A stretch of 7,685 nucleotides of DNA from Candidatus Helarchaeota ASGARD archaeon Hel_GB_B (GTDB taxonomy: Archaea; Asgardarchaeota; Lokiarchaeia; Helarchaeales; HEL-GB-B): contig SUPR01000131.1 in the NCBI GenBank assembly GCA_005191425.1, positions 1 through 7,685 on the forward strand, given 5' to 3'. Each line of letters starts with the position of its first letter. Position 1 is the first letter of the stretch. Positions 179 to 7,579 of the stretch are shown here, in pieces. The translations under genes were made by a program, and so were the position numbers. Below the pieces are notes generated by a model, which saw only the letters and a list, made by a program, of their open reading frames with translations, ran no database searches and was not told the origin of the DNA.

Positions 179-1435
179 TTATTCCCTGACCTGACCATTT
201 CCATAAATAATGAATTTTGTGCTTGTGAGTTCATTTAAACTCATTGGACCTCTAGCATGTAGTTTCTGTGTGCTAATACCGATTTCGGCTCCTAAGCCAA
301 ATTGCCCTCCATCTGTAAATCTTGTTGATGCATTTACATAAACTGCTGCTGCATCTACTTCATTTAAAAACTTTTGAGCATCTGAATAGTTATTGGTAAT
401 AATTGTTTCGGAATGTTTAGAGTCATTTTCAGTAATTATTTCTATTGCTTCATCAATTGAAGATACTATTTTAATAGCAATAATAAGGTCTAAAAATTCA
501 GTTTTCCAATCTTGTTGGGAGGCTTCTATCACATTTGGAAGAATTTTACGAGTTTTAGAGCATCCTCTTATTTGCACATTATATTCATTTAATGCTTTTT
601 CAATAAATGGTAAAAATTTTTCTGCGATTTTTTCGTGGATCAAAATTTTATCAGCTGCATTACAGACTGCTGGTCTTTGGGTTTTAGCATTAATAATAAT
701 TTTTTTAGCCATTTCAAAATCCGCATCATAATTTACAAAAATACTCACAATACCTTCTCCTGTTTCGATAGTTGGTACCGTAGAATTTTGTACTACTTTT
801 TGTATCAGATCTCTCCCGCCTCTTGGGATGATTACATCTATGTATTTATTTAATTTAAGCATTAAATCTACTAATTTTCTATCGGTAATTTCGATTAGTT
901 GAATACAATTTTGAGGTGCTCCTGCTTTTACCGATACCTCAGATATTATTTTGGTTATTATTTTGTTTGAATTTATGGCTTCACTACCACCTCTCAGAAT
1001 GACCGAATTACCGGATTTAAGACAGATACCCGCTGCATCTGAAGTGACATTTGGTCTTGATTCATAAATAATTCCGATAACACCAAGTGGAACTCTTACT
1101 CTTCCAATTAAAAGGCCATTTGGGCGCTTCCACATTGAAATTATTTCTCCAATTGGATCATTCAAAGGAATTAAATCTCTTAGTCCATTGGACATATCTT
1201 TAATTCGTTTTTCGTTTAAAATTAATCTGTCAATTTTAGCTTTAGATATTCCTTTTTCACGAGCTTTCTCTATATCCTTAATATTTTCTCCAATTATTAT
1301 GTCCGCATTTTTTTCTAGAGCATCTGCCATACTGTCTAGGATTTTATTTTTAATATCTGAAGATAGTAGGGCTAATTTTCGAGATGCTATCTTAGCCCTT
1401 TCACCAATTTCAGTAATGTATTTTTCATAATCCAT
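179..1435 (-). CDS. proA: Gamma-glutamyl phosphate reductase (glutamate-5-semialdehyde dehydrogenase)
   Basis: Motifs PLGVIGIIYESRPNVT, GNSVILRGGSEA, IIPRGG, KTQRPAVCNA (catalytic Cys), VNASTRFTDG and GAEIGISTQKLHARGP. Start set at ATG 1435 (MDYEKY), preceded by GTGATG. ATG 1441 is an alternative. The track start at 1474 overlaps proB. Confidence 0.96.
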   Translation of the reverse strand: MDYEKYITEIGERAKIASRKLALLSSDIKNKILDSMADALEKNADIIIGENIKDIEKAREKGISKAKIDRLILNEKRIKDMSNGLRDLIPLNDPIGEIISMWKRPNGLLIGRVRVPLGVIGIIYESRPNVTSDAAGICLKSGNSVILRGGSEAINSNKIITKIISEVSVKAGAPQNCIQLIEITDRKLVDLMLKLNKYIDVIIPRGGRDLIQKVVQNSTVPTIETGEGIVSIFVNYDADFEMAKKIIINAKTQRPAVCNAADKILIHEKIAEKFLPFIEKALNEYNVQIRGCSKTRKILPNVIEASQQDWKTEFLDLIIAIKIVSSIDEAIEIITENDSKHSETIITNNYSDAQKFLNEVDAAAVYVNASTRFTDGGQFGLGAEIGISTQKLHARGPMSLNELTSTKFIIYGNGQVRE

Positions 1436-1445
1436 AATCATCACA

Positions 1446-2216
1446 TTATTTCTCGGGTAAGAATAAAGTACCAATTATTTTACCTTTTAAAATATCAATT
1501 ATCACATTATCTTGAGTGCCATTAGCTATAACAACAGGGATACCAACATTAATCAATTTTTTAGTAGCATTAATTTTACTTTTCATACCCCCAATTGATA
1601 AATTAGACTCAAAATCTTGTGATAATTTTTCAATTTCATGGGTAATTTTTTGAACTTCGTGTATAATTGAAAATTTTGGATTTTTTTGAGGATTACAATC
1701 GCATAATCCATCAATTGTTGATAGAAAAATAACAATGTCCACAAACATTAAAAGCCCTACCAAGGCGGTGAGTGTATCGTTATCTCCAAAAGTAATTTCC
1801 TCAACAGCAACTGTATCATTTTCATTTATAATTGGTAAAATATCAAGTTCAATTAGTTCAGAAATTGTATTTCTTAAATGGGTTCGTCTAATAGAATCTT
1901 TAGTATCTTCTTTTGTCATTAATATTTGTCCAATTTTTATGTTATATTTATTAAATATTTTTTCATAAATACTCATTAAATGTGGTTGTCCAATTGCTGC
2001 AAGAGCTTGTAATTGCTCTAATTTGCTAGGTCTTTCTTTTATTTTTTGAATTTTCATTCCGCATCCAATTGCTCCACTGCTCACTAAAATAACTTTTTTT
2101 CCGGCATTTTTTAATTCGGCTATTTGTTTGACAATTTTTTCGATAATATCATAATAAATTATGTCCTTTCCATCAGTCAGTAAATTTGTTCCAACTTTTA
2201 TTATTATACTTTCCAT
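1446..2216 (-). CDS. proB: Glutamate 5-kinase, short form without PUA domain
   Basis: Motifs IIIKVGTN, VSSGAI, AAIGQ, PIINENDTV, FGDNDTL and GGMKSK. Ends after the kinase domain. Adjacent to proA. Start more likely ATG 2216 (MESIIIKVG) than 2243. Confidence 0.95.
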   Translation of the reverse strand: MESIIIKVGTNLLTDGKDIIYYDIIEKIVKQIAELKNAGKKVILVSSGAIGCGMKIQKIKERPSKLEQLQALAAIGQPHLMSIYEKIFNKYNIKIGQILMTKEDTKDSIRRTHLRNTISELIELDILPIINENDTVAVEEITFGDNDTLTALVGLLMFVDIVIFLSTIDGLCDCNPQKNPKFSIIHEVQKITHEIEKLSQDFESNLSIGGMKSKINATKKLINVGIPVVIANGTQDNVIIDILKGKIIGTLFLPEK

Positions 2217-2414
2217 TTTATGATTTAAAAAGAAAGATCTCATTTATTTTTACCTAATATATTTTAATTTTCTACTATTAAATATAATACTCTAGAATAT
2301 TTAACAAATTATTAATTTATTAAATTAAAGTTTTATTTAAAATGTAATTGTAAATGTAATTTTTAAAAAAATATTAACGTTCAATTTAATTTGTTTTTTA
2401 TGATGATAAAGATT

Positions 2415-3632
2415 TTAATATTTTCTAACCTTTTCCTCTTCTTTTAATCTTCTTATCTCTCTTGTAATTGCTGGCACGACTTTATGTAAATCGCCTACTA
2501 TTCCATAATGTGCGATTTCAAATATTGGTGCATTAGGGTCTTTATTTATAGCAACAATAATGTCTGAACACAATATTCCCACTTTATGTTGAATTGCTCC
2601 AGAGATCCCGCATGCAATATAAAGTCTAGGTGAAATTGTTTTACCTGTTTGACCCACTTGTCGTTCTGGGTCTATCCACCCTAATTCTACGGCTACTCTA
2701 GACCCTGCAACTTCAGCATTTAATTCTTTGGCTAAATCTTTGATAATCTTAAAATTTTCTTTGCTACCAATACCTCTTCCCCCAGCAACAACTATCTGGG
2801 CTTCCTCCAGATTAATCCTTTTTTTTCCGCGTTTTATTATTTTAACAATATTTGTGGAAATATCTGATTCTTTAAATTTACCTTCTATAATCTTAATTTT
2901 AGGCTTCTTGTCCATCTTTTTTGGAACTTTAAACATTCCTGGCCTAATTGTGCTCATTTGTGGTCTGCTATTTGGTGTTCTTATTGTAGCCATGATATTT
3001 CCTCCGAATGTGGGTCTTGTTTGTAATAATAGGTTTCTGGTCTCTTGGTCTATATCTAATCCTGTACAATCGGCTGTTAACCCTGTTTGAAGCCTTTTAG
3101 ATATTCTTGGTGCAAAATCTCTCCCAATTGGAGTTGCTCCTACTAACACTATTTCTGGTTTATATTCAATTATTAGATCTGTAATCACATTAACATAAAT
3201 TTCTGAATAATAATTTCGTAATAGCGGCGATTTCACATATATAACTCTATCAGCGCCATACATCCCTAATTCTTCTAAATTTTCATCTAATTCTGAACCC
3301 AACAAAATAAGTGTTAATTCAACTTTTAATTTATCTGCAAGTTCACGTCCCTTACCTAATAATTGATAAACATAATTCTTTATTTTATTGTTATAATGTT
3401 CACCTATTATCCAAACTCCTTTATATTGCGAAATATCGATTTTTTTTTCTTTTTTCTCGTCTTTAATTATTATTGCACCGACAGGACATGCTTCTACACA
3501 TGCTCCGCATAAAATACATTTTTCAGGAATTAGTTTTGCTTTTCCATCAAAAAGCGTTATTCCTCCATAAAGACATGAATTAATACAACTACCGCAACCA
3601 GTACAGTTTTCTCTATCTATTTTAATTGACAT
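2415..3632 (-). CDS. etfA: Electron transfer flavoprotein alpha subunit with N-terminal 2x[4Fe-4S] ferredoxin domain
   Basis: N-terminal C10-C13-C16-C20 and C39-C42-C45-C49-P motifs. ETF alpha motifs LTADCT, RPTFGGN, VAGGRG, QVGQTGK, GISGAIQH and AINKDPNAPIF. Confidence 0.95.
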   Translation of the reverse strand: MSIKIDRENCTGCGSCINSCLYGGITLFDGKAKLIPEKCILCGACVEACPVGAIIIKDEKKEKKIDISQYKGVWIIGEHYNNKIKNYVYQLLGKGRELADKLKVELTLILLGSELDENLEELGMYGADRVIYVKSPLLRNYYSEIYVNVITDLIIEYKPEIVLVGATPIGRDFAPRISKRLQTGLTADCTGLDIDQETRNLLLQTRPTFGGNIMATIRTPNSRPQMSTIRPGMFKVPKKMDKKPKIKIIEGKFKESDISTNIVKIIKRGKKRINLEEAQIVVAGGRGIGSKENFKIIKDLAKELNAEVAGSRVAVELGWIDPERQVGQTGKTISPRLYIACGISGAIQHKVGILCSDIIVAINKDPNAPIFEIAHYGIVGDLHKVVPAITREIRRLKEEEKVRKY

Positions 3633-3642
3633 TTTTTATCAT

Positions 3643-4449
3643 CTACAAAATTTTGTCTTCCTTTAATTTCTGACATAAATCTTTTGCCACGTCCTCTATT
3701 GTACCAGATAATTTAATATATTCATTTTTTTGTGGCGGAATAAAAATTTTATAAACTTGAGTTCTTGATCCTTCTAACCCAATTTTTTGTATATCTGCAT
3801 CTAAATCTTTAGCATTCCAATGAACGACCTCTTTATAATCAAAAGCATCTACTATTCCAGAAATTGTTGGAAATCTTGGTACATTTAACTCCTTCAAAAC
3901 TGTAATAAGAACTGGTAATTTACACTCTATAACCGCTATTTCATCAGATTGAAAAATACTTTCTGCAATGATTTTATTTTCGCTTAATTCAACATATCTT
4001 ACATTTGTTATTTGAGGTATATTCAACTCTTCAGCTAATTCAGGACCAACTTGTGCCGTATCCCCATCAATTGCTTGAGCGCCACAAACTACGAGATAAT
4101 TTTTGGATTCTTCAGTTTCTTTTAAAATCTTCTTAATTGCTAATGATAAAGTATAGGAAGTAGCTAAAGTATCAGCACCACCAAAAGCTCTGTCTGTCAA
4201 TAAATAGGCCTTGTCGATTCCCATAGCTAGCGATTCCCTTAATATTTCTTCAGCTTGAGGTGGACCCATACTTAACGCAATTACATCTGCACCAGTATTT
4301 TCTTTGATTGATAATGCCAATTCAAGCGCATTCTTGTCCATAGGATTTATCATTCCGGGAACCCCTTCCCTGACTAATGTCCCTGTTTTCCTATCAATCT
4401 TCACCTCAGAAATTGCCGGTACCTGCTTAATACAAACAAAAATTTTCAT
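3643..4449 (-). CDS. etfB: Electron transfer flavoprotein beta subunit
   Basis: Motifs MKIFVCIKQVP, INPMD, SMGPP, DRAFGGADTLATS and QAIDGDTAQVGP. Ends 10 nt upstream of etfA. AAGGA precedes the ATG. Confidence 0.95.
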   Translation of the reverse strand: MKIFVCIKQVPAISEVKIDRKTGTLVREGVPGMINPMDKNALELALSIKENTGADVIALSMGPPQAEEILRESLAMGIDKAYLLTDRAFGGADTLATSYTLSLAIKKILKETEESKNYLVVCGAQAIDGDTAQVGPELAEELNIPQITNVRYVELSENKIIAESIFQSDEIAVIECKLPVLITVLKELNVPRFPTISGIVDAFDYKEVVHWNAKDLDADIQKIGLEGSRTQVYKIFIPPQKNEYIKLSGTIEDVAKDLCQKLKEDKIL

Positions 4450-4825: not shown

Positions 4826-4862
4826 TTAATTAGTATGTTCTAATTTATTTACAGTTCTTTTA

Positions 4863-6048
4863 TCAATGTATGTCTTTTAATAATCTCCTTGCTATCACCA
4901 TTCTTTGTATTTCAGAGGTGCCCTCATAGATTTTAGCCATATAATAACTAATGTTAAGATATTTCGGCCATCTTAGCATCTCTAAAATAACGTTCTACTT
5001 GGTATGCCTTCATTAGACCATAACCACCATGCACTTGAACTGCCATATGAGCGGCTTTCATGGCAGCTTCACTTGCCATTAATTTAGCCATAGACGATTC
5101 CAAGCCATAATCTAATCCTTGATCGCAAAGATAAGCTGATTTATAGGTAAGAAGTCTAGCAGACTCAATAGTGCAACCCATATCGGCAATTTTCCACTGA
5201 ACTCCTTGAAATTGAGCTATTTTTCTACCAAATTGTTCTCTTTCATTAGCATATCTTATAGATGCTTCTAAACACGCTTGTGCAAGCCCAACACATTGAG
5301 CAGCGATTATTATTCTTCCAAAATCCAAAATTTTCAATACGATTTTAAATCCATTACCAATACCGCCTAAAATGTTTTCTTTGGGTACTCTAACATCTTG
5401 GAACACAAGTTCTGAAGTATTTGAAGCTCTAACCCCTAACTTATCTTCTTTTACCCCTACGGAGAACCCTGGTGTATCTGTATCAACTATAAATACGGTA
5501 AAACTTGGGTGTTTGCCTTTCTCACCTGTTCTGGCTGCAACTAATAAAGTTTTAGCTATACCACCATTTGTAGCAAAAATCTTACTTCCATTTAACACCC
5601 ATTCATCACCATCAAGATATGCATTCGTTTCTATACCAGCTGCATCAGACCCTGCATTCGCTTCTGTTAAAGCAAAAGCACCTAACCGCTCACCAGTGGC
5701 TAATGGATATAAAAACTTTTGACGCTGATATTCATTACCAAAAATCCAAAGAGGATATGCAACAACACTACAATGTACTCCGACTGTAATTGCCCAAGAA
5801 GCATCAATTCTCCCAATTTCCTCTATTATTATTGCAAAACTAACTGTGTCATTTTGTAATCCTGCTCCTCCGTATTTTTTTGGAATGCAAATACCAAAAT
5901 AGTTCATTTTCTTCATTAATTCAAAAACTTTCTGGTTAAGTTCTTGCTTTTTATCACTCTCTTCCGCAATAGGTGCTATATATTCTTCGACAAATTCTCT
6001 GGTTATTCTCCTGATCATTTTCTGTTTTTCAGTAATTGAAAAATCCAT
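4863..6048 (-). CDS. Acyl-CoA dehydrogenase (short-chain/butyryl-CoA dehydrogenase-like), split gene: complement(join(4863..4932,4964..6048)), 384 aa after removal of a 31-nt intron
   Basis: Exon 1 has GAFALTEANAGSD, LNGSKIFATNG, KLGVRAS, REQFG, QVHGGYG and ERYFRDAK. The conserved C-terminus IYEGTSEIQRMVIARRLL lies in the +1 frame at 4931..4866, with TGA at 4865..4863. Start taken as ATG 6048 (MDFSITE), preceded by GTGGT. The ACAD family call is secure. The spliced model is a prediction. Confidence 0.9.
4933..4963 (-). other. Putative 31-nt bulge-helix-bulge (archaeal tRNA-endonuclease-type) mRNA intron, AAUAUCUUAACAUUAGUUAUUAUAUGGCUAA
   Basis: Outer helix AGAU(4973-4970)/AUCU(4931-4928). 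Central 4-bp helix GGCC(4969-4966)/GGCU(4938-4935). Three-nt bulges GAA(4965-4963) and AAA(4934-4932). Inner helix AUAU(4962-4959)/AUAU(4942-4939), then UAAC/GUUA closing an AUUA loop. Cleavage after the 2nd nt of each bulge gives GA|A AUC UAU GAG and restores the frame. Confidence 0.85.
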
Positions 6049-6229
6049 TTTTACCACAAAATTATAATTAATTTCCAATTTTCTTTAAATTTAAATTAAA
6101 AACAAATATTTACTTAATTAATTTCACAAAAATTTATTATAAATAGGATTGATTAATAAAAAAATAATTACTAACATATTTAAATTAAAGATAAATTTGA
6201 TAATTGATTCATTTTGTAAGTGGAAAAAT
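6049..6229. promoter_or_regulatory. Divergent intergenic region, likely holding promoters for ACAD (-) and the TPR-BKACE-SDR unit (+)
   Basis: Flanking genes point away from each other. A-rich run followed by TTTATTATAAAT near 6127-6144 resembles BRE/TATA. Exact elements cannot be assigned. Confidence 0.4.
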
Positions 6230-6739
6230 ATGGAAAATAATAATGTAGTTCGGGATTATTCTGAAGAATATCAAATATCTAAAGATATGTTTGATTCTTA
6301 TAATAAATCTAAAATCCTAAAAGAAATGGGAATAAAAATTAGTAAAACAAATCCCGAAAAAGCTTTAGATTATTTTCAGAAATCTTTAAGATCAATAAAA
6401 AAGCTGAGAATAAAGTCAAAAAATGACTCTTTAAAGAAATATTATCTTAAATCTGAATTATTTTTTAATATAGGAAAAATATATCAAGAATTAAATGATA
6501 TCAAAAAAGCCTTGCATTTCTTTAAATTTGCAAGTAAAGCTTGTAAACGGACTGAAAACAAAATTTTATCTGCAGCAATTGCCACTTCGATTTTATCAAT
6601 TAATTTTAATCTAGATTACAATAATAAATCAAAGGAAAATAAAATTAAGAACCAAATTAAATTTAATTGGATGTTTTTAATGGCAAATATTTTGTTTGGG
6701 GTATTAATTTTAATAATGATTTTTCTATTTTTTAAATAA
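6230..6739 (+). CDS. Hypothetical TPR-like helical protein with C-terminal transmembrane anchor
   Basis: Two TPR-like units (KILKEMGIKISKTNPEKALDYFQKSL; ELFFNIGKIYQELNDIKKALHFFKFAS) and a terminal hydrophobic segment FNWMFLMANILFGVLILIMIFLFFK*. Start more likely ATG 6230 than 6149. Confidence 0.65.
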   Translation: MENNNVVRDYSEEYQISKDMFDSYNKSKILKEMGIKISKTNPEKALDYFQKSLRSIKKLRIKSKNDSLKKYYLKSELFFNIGKIYQELNDIKKALHFFKFASKACKRTENKILSAAIATSILSINFNLDYNNKSKENKIKNQIKFNWMFLMANILFGVLILIMIFLFFK

Positions 6740-6778
6740 GTAATTTAGAATTATAAAGAAGTAAAAGTGAATTAAAAA

Positions 6779-7579
6779 TTGAAGGAAAAATTAATAATTA
6801 CTGCAACTAATGCAAATTCATGGATCTATCCTGATGTGAAAAACTGGCCAAATCCAGAAAATGTGGACGAACTTGTTGAAGATGTTATAAAATCATATAA
6901 AGCAGGGGCAAGTATAGCGCATATTCATCTCCCTCTTAGTAAAGAAGCAGAAACCGTTAATAAAATTAGAGAGCAGTGTGATATAATTATTCAAGCTGGG
7001 ATGTCTAGCTATCCTTTAAGTGAACGTTCTGCAACATTTGAAGCGAAACCTGACATGATTTCCATAATTTTAAACCACCATGATGAACATTTTACTCAGT
7101 TGCATGTTAATCAAATACATTCTCTTGAGGAATTAGAACAATATTGTGCCATGTGCAAAAAATATAAAATTAAACCAGAATGGGAAGTTTGGCATACTGG
7201 TTCATTTTGGAATTTAAAATATCTCATTGAGAAAAAATTAATAGAACCTCCACATGTTTTAACTTTCTTTTTTAATTGGCCCGGTGGTACTTGGAGTCCT
7301 CCAGTCCCTGAAGAATATCTACATCGTTTAAAATTCATGCCGATAAATTGCAAACATACTGTAAGTATTATGGGGAAAGAACAGACAACAATAGCTACAT
7401 TAGCAATTGCATTAGGTGGAAATGTAAGAGTAGGAACTGAAGATTATCCTTTTATCCAAGAAAATGTCCCTGCAAAAGACACATCCGAATTAGTATCAAG
7501 AATGGTTAGAATTTCAAAGGAAATGGGTAGAGAAATTGCCAAACCATCAGAAGCTAGAAAAATTTTAGGTATAAAATGA
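6779..7579 (+). CDS. Beta-keto acid cleavage enzyme family protein (BKACE/DUF849, Kce-like)
   Basis: KLIITA start, GASIAHIH (metal HxH), IKPEWEVW, ALGGNVRVGTED (family GGxVRVGLED) and AKPSEARKILG end. TTG start preceded by GTGA. Confidence 0.88.
   Translation: MKEKLIITATNANSWIYPDVKNWPNPENVDELVEDVIKSYKAGASIAHIHLPLSKEAETVNKIREQCDIIIQAGMSSYPLSERSATFEAKPDMISIILNHHDEHFTQLHVNQIHSLEELEQYCAMCKKYKIKPEWEVWHTGSFWNLKYLIEKKLIEPPHVLTFFFNWPGGTWSPPVPEEYLHRLKFMPINCKHTVSIMGKEQTTIATLAIALGGNVRVGTEDYPFIQENVPAKDTSELVSRMVRISKEMGREIAKPSEARKILGIK

Follow-up and report, generated by a model that had tools for sequence, protein, structure and literature searches.

A tRNA-type bulge-helix-bulge intron predicted in the coding sequence of an Asgard acyl-CoA dehydrogenase gene

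Archaeal mRNAs known to be spliced by EndA, the tRNA splicing endonuclease, are those of cbf5 in Crenarchaeota (PMC2738675) and of HVO_1309 in Haloferax (PMC7714728; PMC10485636), and a 2023 review counts "at least two archaeal genes" while expecting further ones (PMC10485636). Here we describe a candidate intron of the same type in the genome of the Asgard archaeon Hel_GB_B (G000; 3.54 Mb, 28% GC, 94% complete). It interrupts an acyl-CoA dehydrogenase (ACAD) gene on the minus strand of contig SUPR01000131.1, the whole of which (7,685 nucleotides) is the window analyzed in this study. A first-pass annotation of this DNA had proposed a bulge-helix-bulge (BHB) intron at this site and correctly named crenarchaeal cbf5 as its precedent, to which the literature adds HVO_1309 (PMC10485636). 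Our literature search for BHB introns in mRNAs or protein genes of Asgard archaea or Lokiarchaeota found none within the searchable literature, and a preprint of October 2026 that deals with tRNA introns of Asgard archaea leaves mRNAs untreated (bioRxiv 10.64898/2026.10.13.758758). Geometry and comparison with relatives indicate that the 31 nucleotides (nt) from 4963 to 4933 are a real and conserved BHB intron.

The motif and its predicted splice product

Without splicing, the ACAD open reading frame (ORF) that starts at 6048 ends at a TAA (4956-4954) just after ...RDAKMAEIS, and downstream of this premature stop the sequence IYEGTSEIQRMVIARRLLKDIH, followed by a stop codon, is encoded in a different frame. 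Removal of the 31 nt joins 6048..4964 to 4932..4863, unites GA (4965-4964) with A (4932) in a glutamate codon and repairs the +1 frameshift. The conceptual product is an ACAD of 384 amino acids ending in ...DAKMAE/IYEGTSEIQRMVIARRLLKDIH (the slash marks the junction), with no further lesion across its 384 codons. Its junction region reads DAKMAE/IYEGTSEIQR or, at greater length, DAKMAEIYEGTSEIQR. In the transcript the exon ends to be joined are predicted to be ...AUGGCCGA and AAUCUAUGAG..., giving a spliced junction ...AAGAUGGCCGA/AAUCUAUGAGGGC... without the 31 nt and a junction peptide MAEIYEGTSEIQR. About 20 intron-less orthologues from relatives read ...AAR AUG GNN GAA AUH UAU GAR GG... 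at this place, which is exactly the predicted spliced sequence. Close orthologues stem from metagenome-assembled genomes entitled Promethearchaeota (Asgard), among them some labelled as Thor-, Hermod- and Hodarchaeota. The interruption falls three codons ahead of the glutamate of the YEG motif, which in short- and medium-chain ACADs serves as the catalytic base.

Read along the minus strand, the motif consists of AGAU (4973-4970), GGCC (4969-4966), a GAA bulge (4965-4963), an inner hairpin of 24 nt (4962-4939), GGCU (4938-4935), an AAA bulge (4934-4932) and AUCU (4931-4928). The unconstrained minimum-free-energy fold of 4983..4918 returns precisely a helix, a 3-nt bulge, a 4-bp helix, a second 3-nt bulge and a helix. 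Both bulges sit 3' of the central helix, each on its own strand, and all four central pairs (GGCC with GGCU) are formed between them. Flanking helices are present on both sides; the inner one (AUAU with AUAU) is extended by UAAC pairing with GUUA, and the outer one (AGAU with AUCU, 4 bp), rich in A and U, is of marginal thermodynamic stability. If each bulge is cut after its second base, the joined product described above results, a predicted intact ORF, and this cut position is consistent with solved EndA-RNA complexes (PMC12397907). The sequence, coordinates and geometry claimed in the first-pass annotation are those of the computed fold, the 31-nt excision it predicted does remove the UAA and restore the frame, and the match to the ACAD consensus that it saw in the spliced product is borne out by the intron-less orthologues.

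Same-site inserts in related Asgard archaea

Pattern searches for inserts at the same codon covered 161 genomes of the class, together with a metagenome scan. Inserts at the same GA/A codon position were found in six other genomes of the class, which belong to three genera, and in 11 metagenome contigs, and all of them are 30 nt long. They share one build, in which the outer 4 bp, four central nucleotides and a 3-nt bulge are followed by a 9-bp stem with a 5-nt loop, four central nucleotides, a second 3-nt bulge and the other half of the outer helix, and they are clearly homologous to one another. Since a MAFFT alignment of the Hel_GB_B gene with this family put the gap in the wrong place, the 31-nt intron was analyzed apart from it.

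Covariation was assessed in an alignment of the 17 sequences carrying 30-nt inserts, 15 of which are distinct. Positions assigned to BHB helices are paired in 93.7% of cells, compared with 30-40% when the partners are slid, and eight pairs are altered on both sides, a number reached by none of 500 shuffles. RNAalifold, to which the structure was not supplied, recovered the 9-bp stem, the 5' bulge and all but one of the four pairs in the central helix. In the central helix, exon GGCC meets intron GGCU or GGUU, exon GGCU meets AGCU, and exon GGGU meets AUCC, ACCU or ACCC; with one G.A mismatch, exon GGGU is also found with ACCA, GCCA or GCUA and exon GGGG with ACCU. An Ala codon (GCN) is paired with an intron G in this way, and a Gly codon (GGN) with an intron C or U. 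The outer helix has a single variable pair formed by two synonymous third positions, those of Lys AAR and Ile AUH, which can pair in all seven intron-bearing genomes versus 21 of 39 intron-less orthologues. The exon-intron helices of the 31-nt intron conform to the pattern of the 30-nt family. Covariation in orthologues, which the first-pass annotation had suggested looking for, is thus seen at the same site as compensatory base-pair changes within the proposed helices of the 30-nt family.

Excision restores a full-length gene in 13 intron-bearing copies with sufficient contig. Among intron-bearing genes, synonymous differences in exon 2 (pS 0.16-0.94) exceed non-synonymous ones (pN 0-0.20; pN/pS about 0-0.3), a sign of purifying selection which indicates that exon 2 is translated in the spliced frame. 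Because co-varying inserts are present at the same codon in relatives, the mRNA almost certainly requires splicing to give active enzyme. All six translated genome copies of the 30-nt intron have an in-frame UAA or UAG made from the last inner-helix pair and the first central-helix base, and the 11 metagenome contigs show the same letters, UA followed by A or G, at that position when inspected by eye. An unspliced message with such a stop would be truncated rather than extended by 10 residues.

DNA contigs of two further studies contain the Hel_GB_B insert without any difference (record 4 of X3 spans 4859-5100, and X2 covers it from 4941 onwards), so that the insert, which the first-pass annotation wanted confirmed in DNA, is identical in independent assemblies. 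These contigs, and the 17 inserts found at the site in other assemblies, rule out an assembly artefact. Among the sequencing runs listed for the gene, X1-X5 contain its DNA and none is an RNA run; the source sediments are hydrothermal or marine. In record 2 of run X2 (4905-5044), a short contig of a relative has 51 letters in place of 82; the 31 missing letters indicate that an intron-less relative is present in that run.

Predicted splicing and alternative explanations

The host genome encodes RtcB (on C105; E = 9e-171) and two EndA paralogues with matches at C36:44408-44659 and C98:28593-28853, a catalytic alpha-like and a non-catalytic beta-like protein; an archaeal host and these enzymes were among the points that the first-pass annotation wanted confirmed. 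The alpha-like protein matches chain 3P1Z_B of Aeropyrum pernix EndA (E = 2.5e-42) and keeps the Y/H/K region with the GPGIDHAPF catalytic region, and the second paralogue has Ala at the position aligned with the catalytic His. Such a pair is consistent with an (alpha-beta)2 enzyme. EndA of this type with a broad-specificity loop has been described from Asgard and TACK archaea (PMC5829648) and was found in 44 of 60 Asgard genomes (bioRxiv 10.64898/2026.10.13.758758).

We consider it very probable that the intron is removed from the ACAD mRNA by EndA and RtcB, and cleavage and ligation of this transcript in vivo are what we infer from the comparative evidence. In the transcript, AGAU GGCC of exon 1 would pair with GGCU at the 3' end of the intron and AUCU of exon 2, displaying two 3-nt bulges separated by four base pairs. 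A heteromeric (alpha-beta)2-type EndA would then cut after the second base of both bulges, and RtcB would ligate the exon ends ...AUGGCCGA and AAUCUAUGAG..., setting the intron free, probably as a small circle. The last 23 residues, including the YEG glutamate, would be encoded solely by the spliced mRNA. Unspliced mRNA would yield a truncated and presumably inactive protein, because the intron precedes this glutamate.

Several observations weigh against this interpretation. The fold energy is no better than that of shuffled sequences (z = -0.62), as is expected of a short AU-rich hairpin, and the weight therefore rests on geometry and comparison. In RNAalifold the AU-rich outer helix stays open, and six of the 15 distinct 30-nt sequences have one central-helix G.A mismatch, which makes theirs a relaxed motif. 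The 31-nt intron is a single sequence; no covariation backs its inner hairpin, and a similarity of the intron to the 30-nt family cannot be demonstrated. Two intron-bearing copies elsewhere have other lesions: L026 (G064:C379) is without about 50 N-terminal residues, in frame, and L123 (Ga0209976_10008223) is a 3' fragment with ACAD homology only from residue 236. Finally, the host genome has ten ACAD paralogues, and the interrupted one need not be essential.

One variant of the splicing interpretation is that EndA cuts the BHB chiefly as a switch or decay site, with partial or conditional splicing setting the level of active enzyme. Down-regulation of this kind has been proposed for cbf5 (PMC2738675), and both the position of the intron so close ahead of the catalytic motif and the retention of an in-frame stop in the 30-nt introns would suit it. 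However, the patchy presence of the intron among very close relatives is more suggestive of an element that is neutral or selfish than of a conserved regulator, and we regard a primarily regulatory role as improbable.

A decaying pseudogene, in which a small insertion or duplication broke one of the ten paralogues and the BHB appearance is coincidental, seems to us still less probable. The near-repeat ATGGCCGAAAT / ATGGCTAAAAT, the number of paralogues, the unremarkable fold energy, the lesions in two other intron-bearing copies and the lack of the insert in the nearest relative (G001) and the remainder of the order would all fit decay. Yet a BHB whose GGCC helix is palindromic has two-fold symmetry, and this explains the near-repeat. 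In the host genome, with about 7.09 million positions x 139 lengths, 49,831 strict motifs (4+4+3 pairs with 3-nt bulges) were counted, or about 5e-5 per position and length; for an arbitrary insert to be enclosed by such a motif in the frame-restoring register would thus be roughly a 1e-4 event. Neither further lesions in the gene nor relaxed selection downstream of the supposed break were found; the 384 codons are otherwise intact, exon 2 is under purifying selection, and the site is occupied in 17 other sequences by inserts whose compensatory changes preserve the BHB. Translational recoding, with ribosomes hopping over the insert in the manner of T4 gene 60 or shifting frame without any RNA splicing, is in our view the least probable explanation. 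Hel_GB_B does formally allow a hop from GCC to a GCU that lies 31 nt downstream, and a stop does follow the take-off region, but such a hop would give Lys where all orthologues have an invariant Glu, and the 30-nt family is without conserved matching take-off and landing codons. Conservation and covariation concern the BHB and its exon-intron pairs, which a bypass would not need.

Gene context, distribution and known systems

Features of the locus are collected in Table 1. Exon 1 matches the Pfam domains Acyl-CoA_dh_N, _M and _1, the match to the C-terminal domain ending at profile position 133 of 150. Among solved structures, the protein comes closest to two electron-bifurcating butyryl-CoA dehydrogenases, that of Clostridioides difficile (5OL2_C, E = 2e-120) and that of Acidaminococcus (4L1F), and the exon 2 region aligns with Bcd 5OL2_C as follows: DAKITEIYEGTSEVQR. 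Judged by homology and gene order, the interrupted gene is a Bcd-like ACAD in a Bcd/Etf-type butyryl-CoA dehydrogenase operon of an Asgard archaeon. The minus-strand context at 179-4449 comprises etfB, etfA and a proB/proA-like pair of amino-acid kinase and aldehyde dehydrogenase genes. On the opposite strand, 6149-7579 (+) encodes a TPR protein and a BKACE-family enzyme.

Table 1. Features of the interrupted ACAD locus within the window
Feature	Position	Strand	Description
ACAD gene, exon 1	4964..6048	minus	361 codons from ATG 6048 (MDFS...) plus GA of a Glu codon; Pfam
Candidate BHB intron, 31 nt	4933..4963	minus	contains UAA 4956-4954; +1 frame shift; excision restores the frame and the conserved motif
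ACAD gene, exon 2	4863..4932	minus	last base of the Glu codon followed by IYEGTSEIQRMVIARRLLKDIH and TGA; contains the YEG glutamate
Complete motif with flanking helices (hBHBh')	4928..4973	minus	minimum-free-energy fold; 4/4 central and 4/4 outer pairs
etfB-like gene	3643..4449	minus	PF01012; directly downstream (operon context)
etfA-like gene	2415..3632	minus	N-terminal 2x[4Fe-4S] ferredoxin domain; Pfam Fer4, ETF, ETF_alpha (operon context)

The other nine ACAD paralogues of the host genome are uninterrupted. In the gene tree, intron-bearing rows are dispersed and at least 5-6 gains or losses are required; the closest relatives of three intron-bearing genes are intron-less (G001 for G000, L050 for G081 and L018 for G135), and the 31-nt intron sits in an otherwise intron-less clade. 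A phylum-wide pattern search of 400 genomes found no ACAD insert at this site outside the class. Extra pattern matches in G005, G082, G085, G146, G303, G334, G335, G363 and G376 had no such insert in the matched letters, and the sole one that was translated (L115, from G303) is not an ACAD. The intron of Hel_GB_B may be an ancient one that was precisely lost many times, or it may result from a second gain at the same site; both origins come into question because homology between the 31-nt and 30-nt introns is not demonstrable and the surrounding clade is otherwise intron-less. A repeat or mobile element was considered and rejected, since a blastn-short search of the entire genome with the intron and the motif gave only short matches at chance level and no other copy. 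No Rfam family matched in the window at E <= 1.

A second interrupted gene was found outside the window. The rfcS gene is split by a 30-nt hBHBh' intron (G000:C131:8417-8446, plus strand) built like the 30-nt ACAD introns: AGGC CACG AAA, a 9-bp stem with a 5-nt loop, and CGUG AUC GCUU. Without this intron rfcS encodes a complete RFC small subunit of about 320 amino acids from ATG 8362. We also carried out a census of hidden introns in the host genome, requiring strict or mini-intron BHB geometry and the joining of ORFs. Its yield of about 460-820 candidates was no greater than that of controls in which the 3' cut was shifted by 1-4 nt; at 28% GC the filter is uninformative, and the outcome speaks neither for nor against hidden introns. 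The rfcS intron was missed because exon 1 of this gene is short. ARAGORN in intron mode found only six tRNA genes in the genome, which is in keeping with interruption of its tRNA genes by multiple non-canonical introns. It is tempting to regard the ACAD intron as a member of a population of BHB mini-introns of about 30 nt that is still turning over in Asgard protein genes. The 31-nt intron would then be an independent gain at a "proto-splice site" (ARAUGGNNGA/AAUYU, with exon halves that already pair) which is used by the 30-nt family in another family of the class. We put this forward tentatively and think it rather unlikely on balance; if true, it would mean that in the archaea most closely related to eukaryotes introns are actively inserted into mRNAs, for instance through reversal of the EndA/RtcB reaction and copying back to DNA.

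Together, the ACAD and rfcS introns suggest that annotation greatly understates how often protein genes of Asgard archaea are interrupted. Interrupted genes of this kind get annotated as truncated genes or pseudogenes, and metabolic reconstructions of Asgard archaea are distorted as a result. Such genes also raise the question of how their introns originate, and how they spread, in the lineage closest to eukaryotes.

The ACAD intron adds a new case to the known, very small kind of archaeal mRNAs spliced by EndA and RtcB. What sets it apart is its Asgard host, its place in a gene of central metabolism and comparative support that is unusually clean because codon positions in the exon co-vary with bases in the intron. 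The closest parallel is the cbf5 intron of Aeropyrum, Sulfolobales and Desulfurococcales (Watanabe 2002, Yoshinari 2006, Yokobori 2009 = PMC2738675), likewise a short BHB-type intron in a coding sequence. Both have hosts with heteromeric EndA, a partly relaxed motif, lineage-specific presence and loss, and a history of routine mis-annotation. They differ in that cbf5 encodes an RNA-modification enzyme of Crenarchaeota rather than a metabolic flavoenzyme of Asgard archaea, and turnover among close relatives is much patchier for ACAD. Splicing of cbf5 has been shown experimentally, whereas for ACAD we infer it.

The HVO_1309 mRNA of Haloferax volcanii also has a BHB, with EndA cleavage and a spliced form observed, in a euryarchaeal host with TSEN of the alpha2 type (PMC7714728; PMC10485636). 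The ACAD intron breaks the coding frame right before the catalytic motif. In HVO_1309, by contrast, the BHB presumably lies in the 5' untranslated region and not in the coding frame. Non-canonical BHB introns of archaeal tRNAs, including the heavily interrupted tRNAs of Asgard archaea (Marck & Grosjean 2003; bioRxiv 10.64898/2026.10.13.758758), share with the ACAD intron the motif, the cut rule, the enzymes, a similar size and repeated gain and loss. The ACAD intron differs from them in its mRNA substrate, where codons constrain those helix halves that lie in the exons and covariation links codon positions with intron bases. Outside archaea, HAC1/XBP1 splicing by Ire1 and tRNA ligase or RtcB resembles the predicted ACAD splicing in non-spliceosomal excision by a protein endonuclease, in joining by a tRNA ligase and in a change of the C-terminal frame. 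However, it uses Ire1 instead of EndA and twin stem-loops instead of a BHB, and it serves a regulated stress response.
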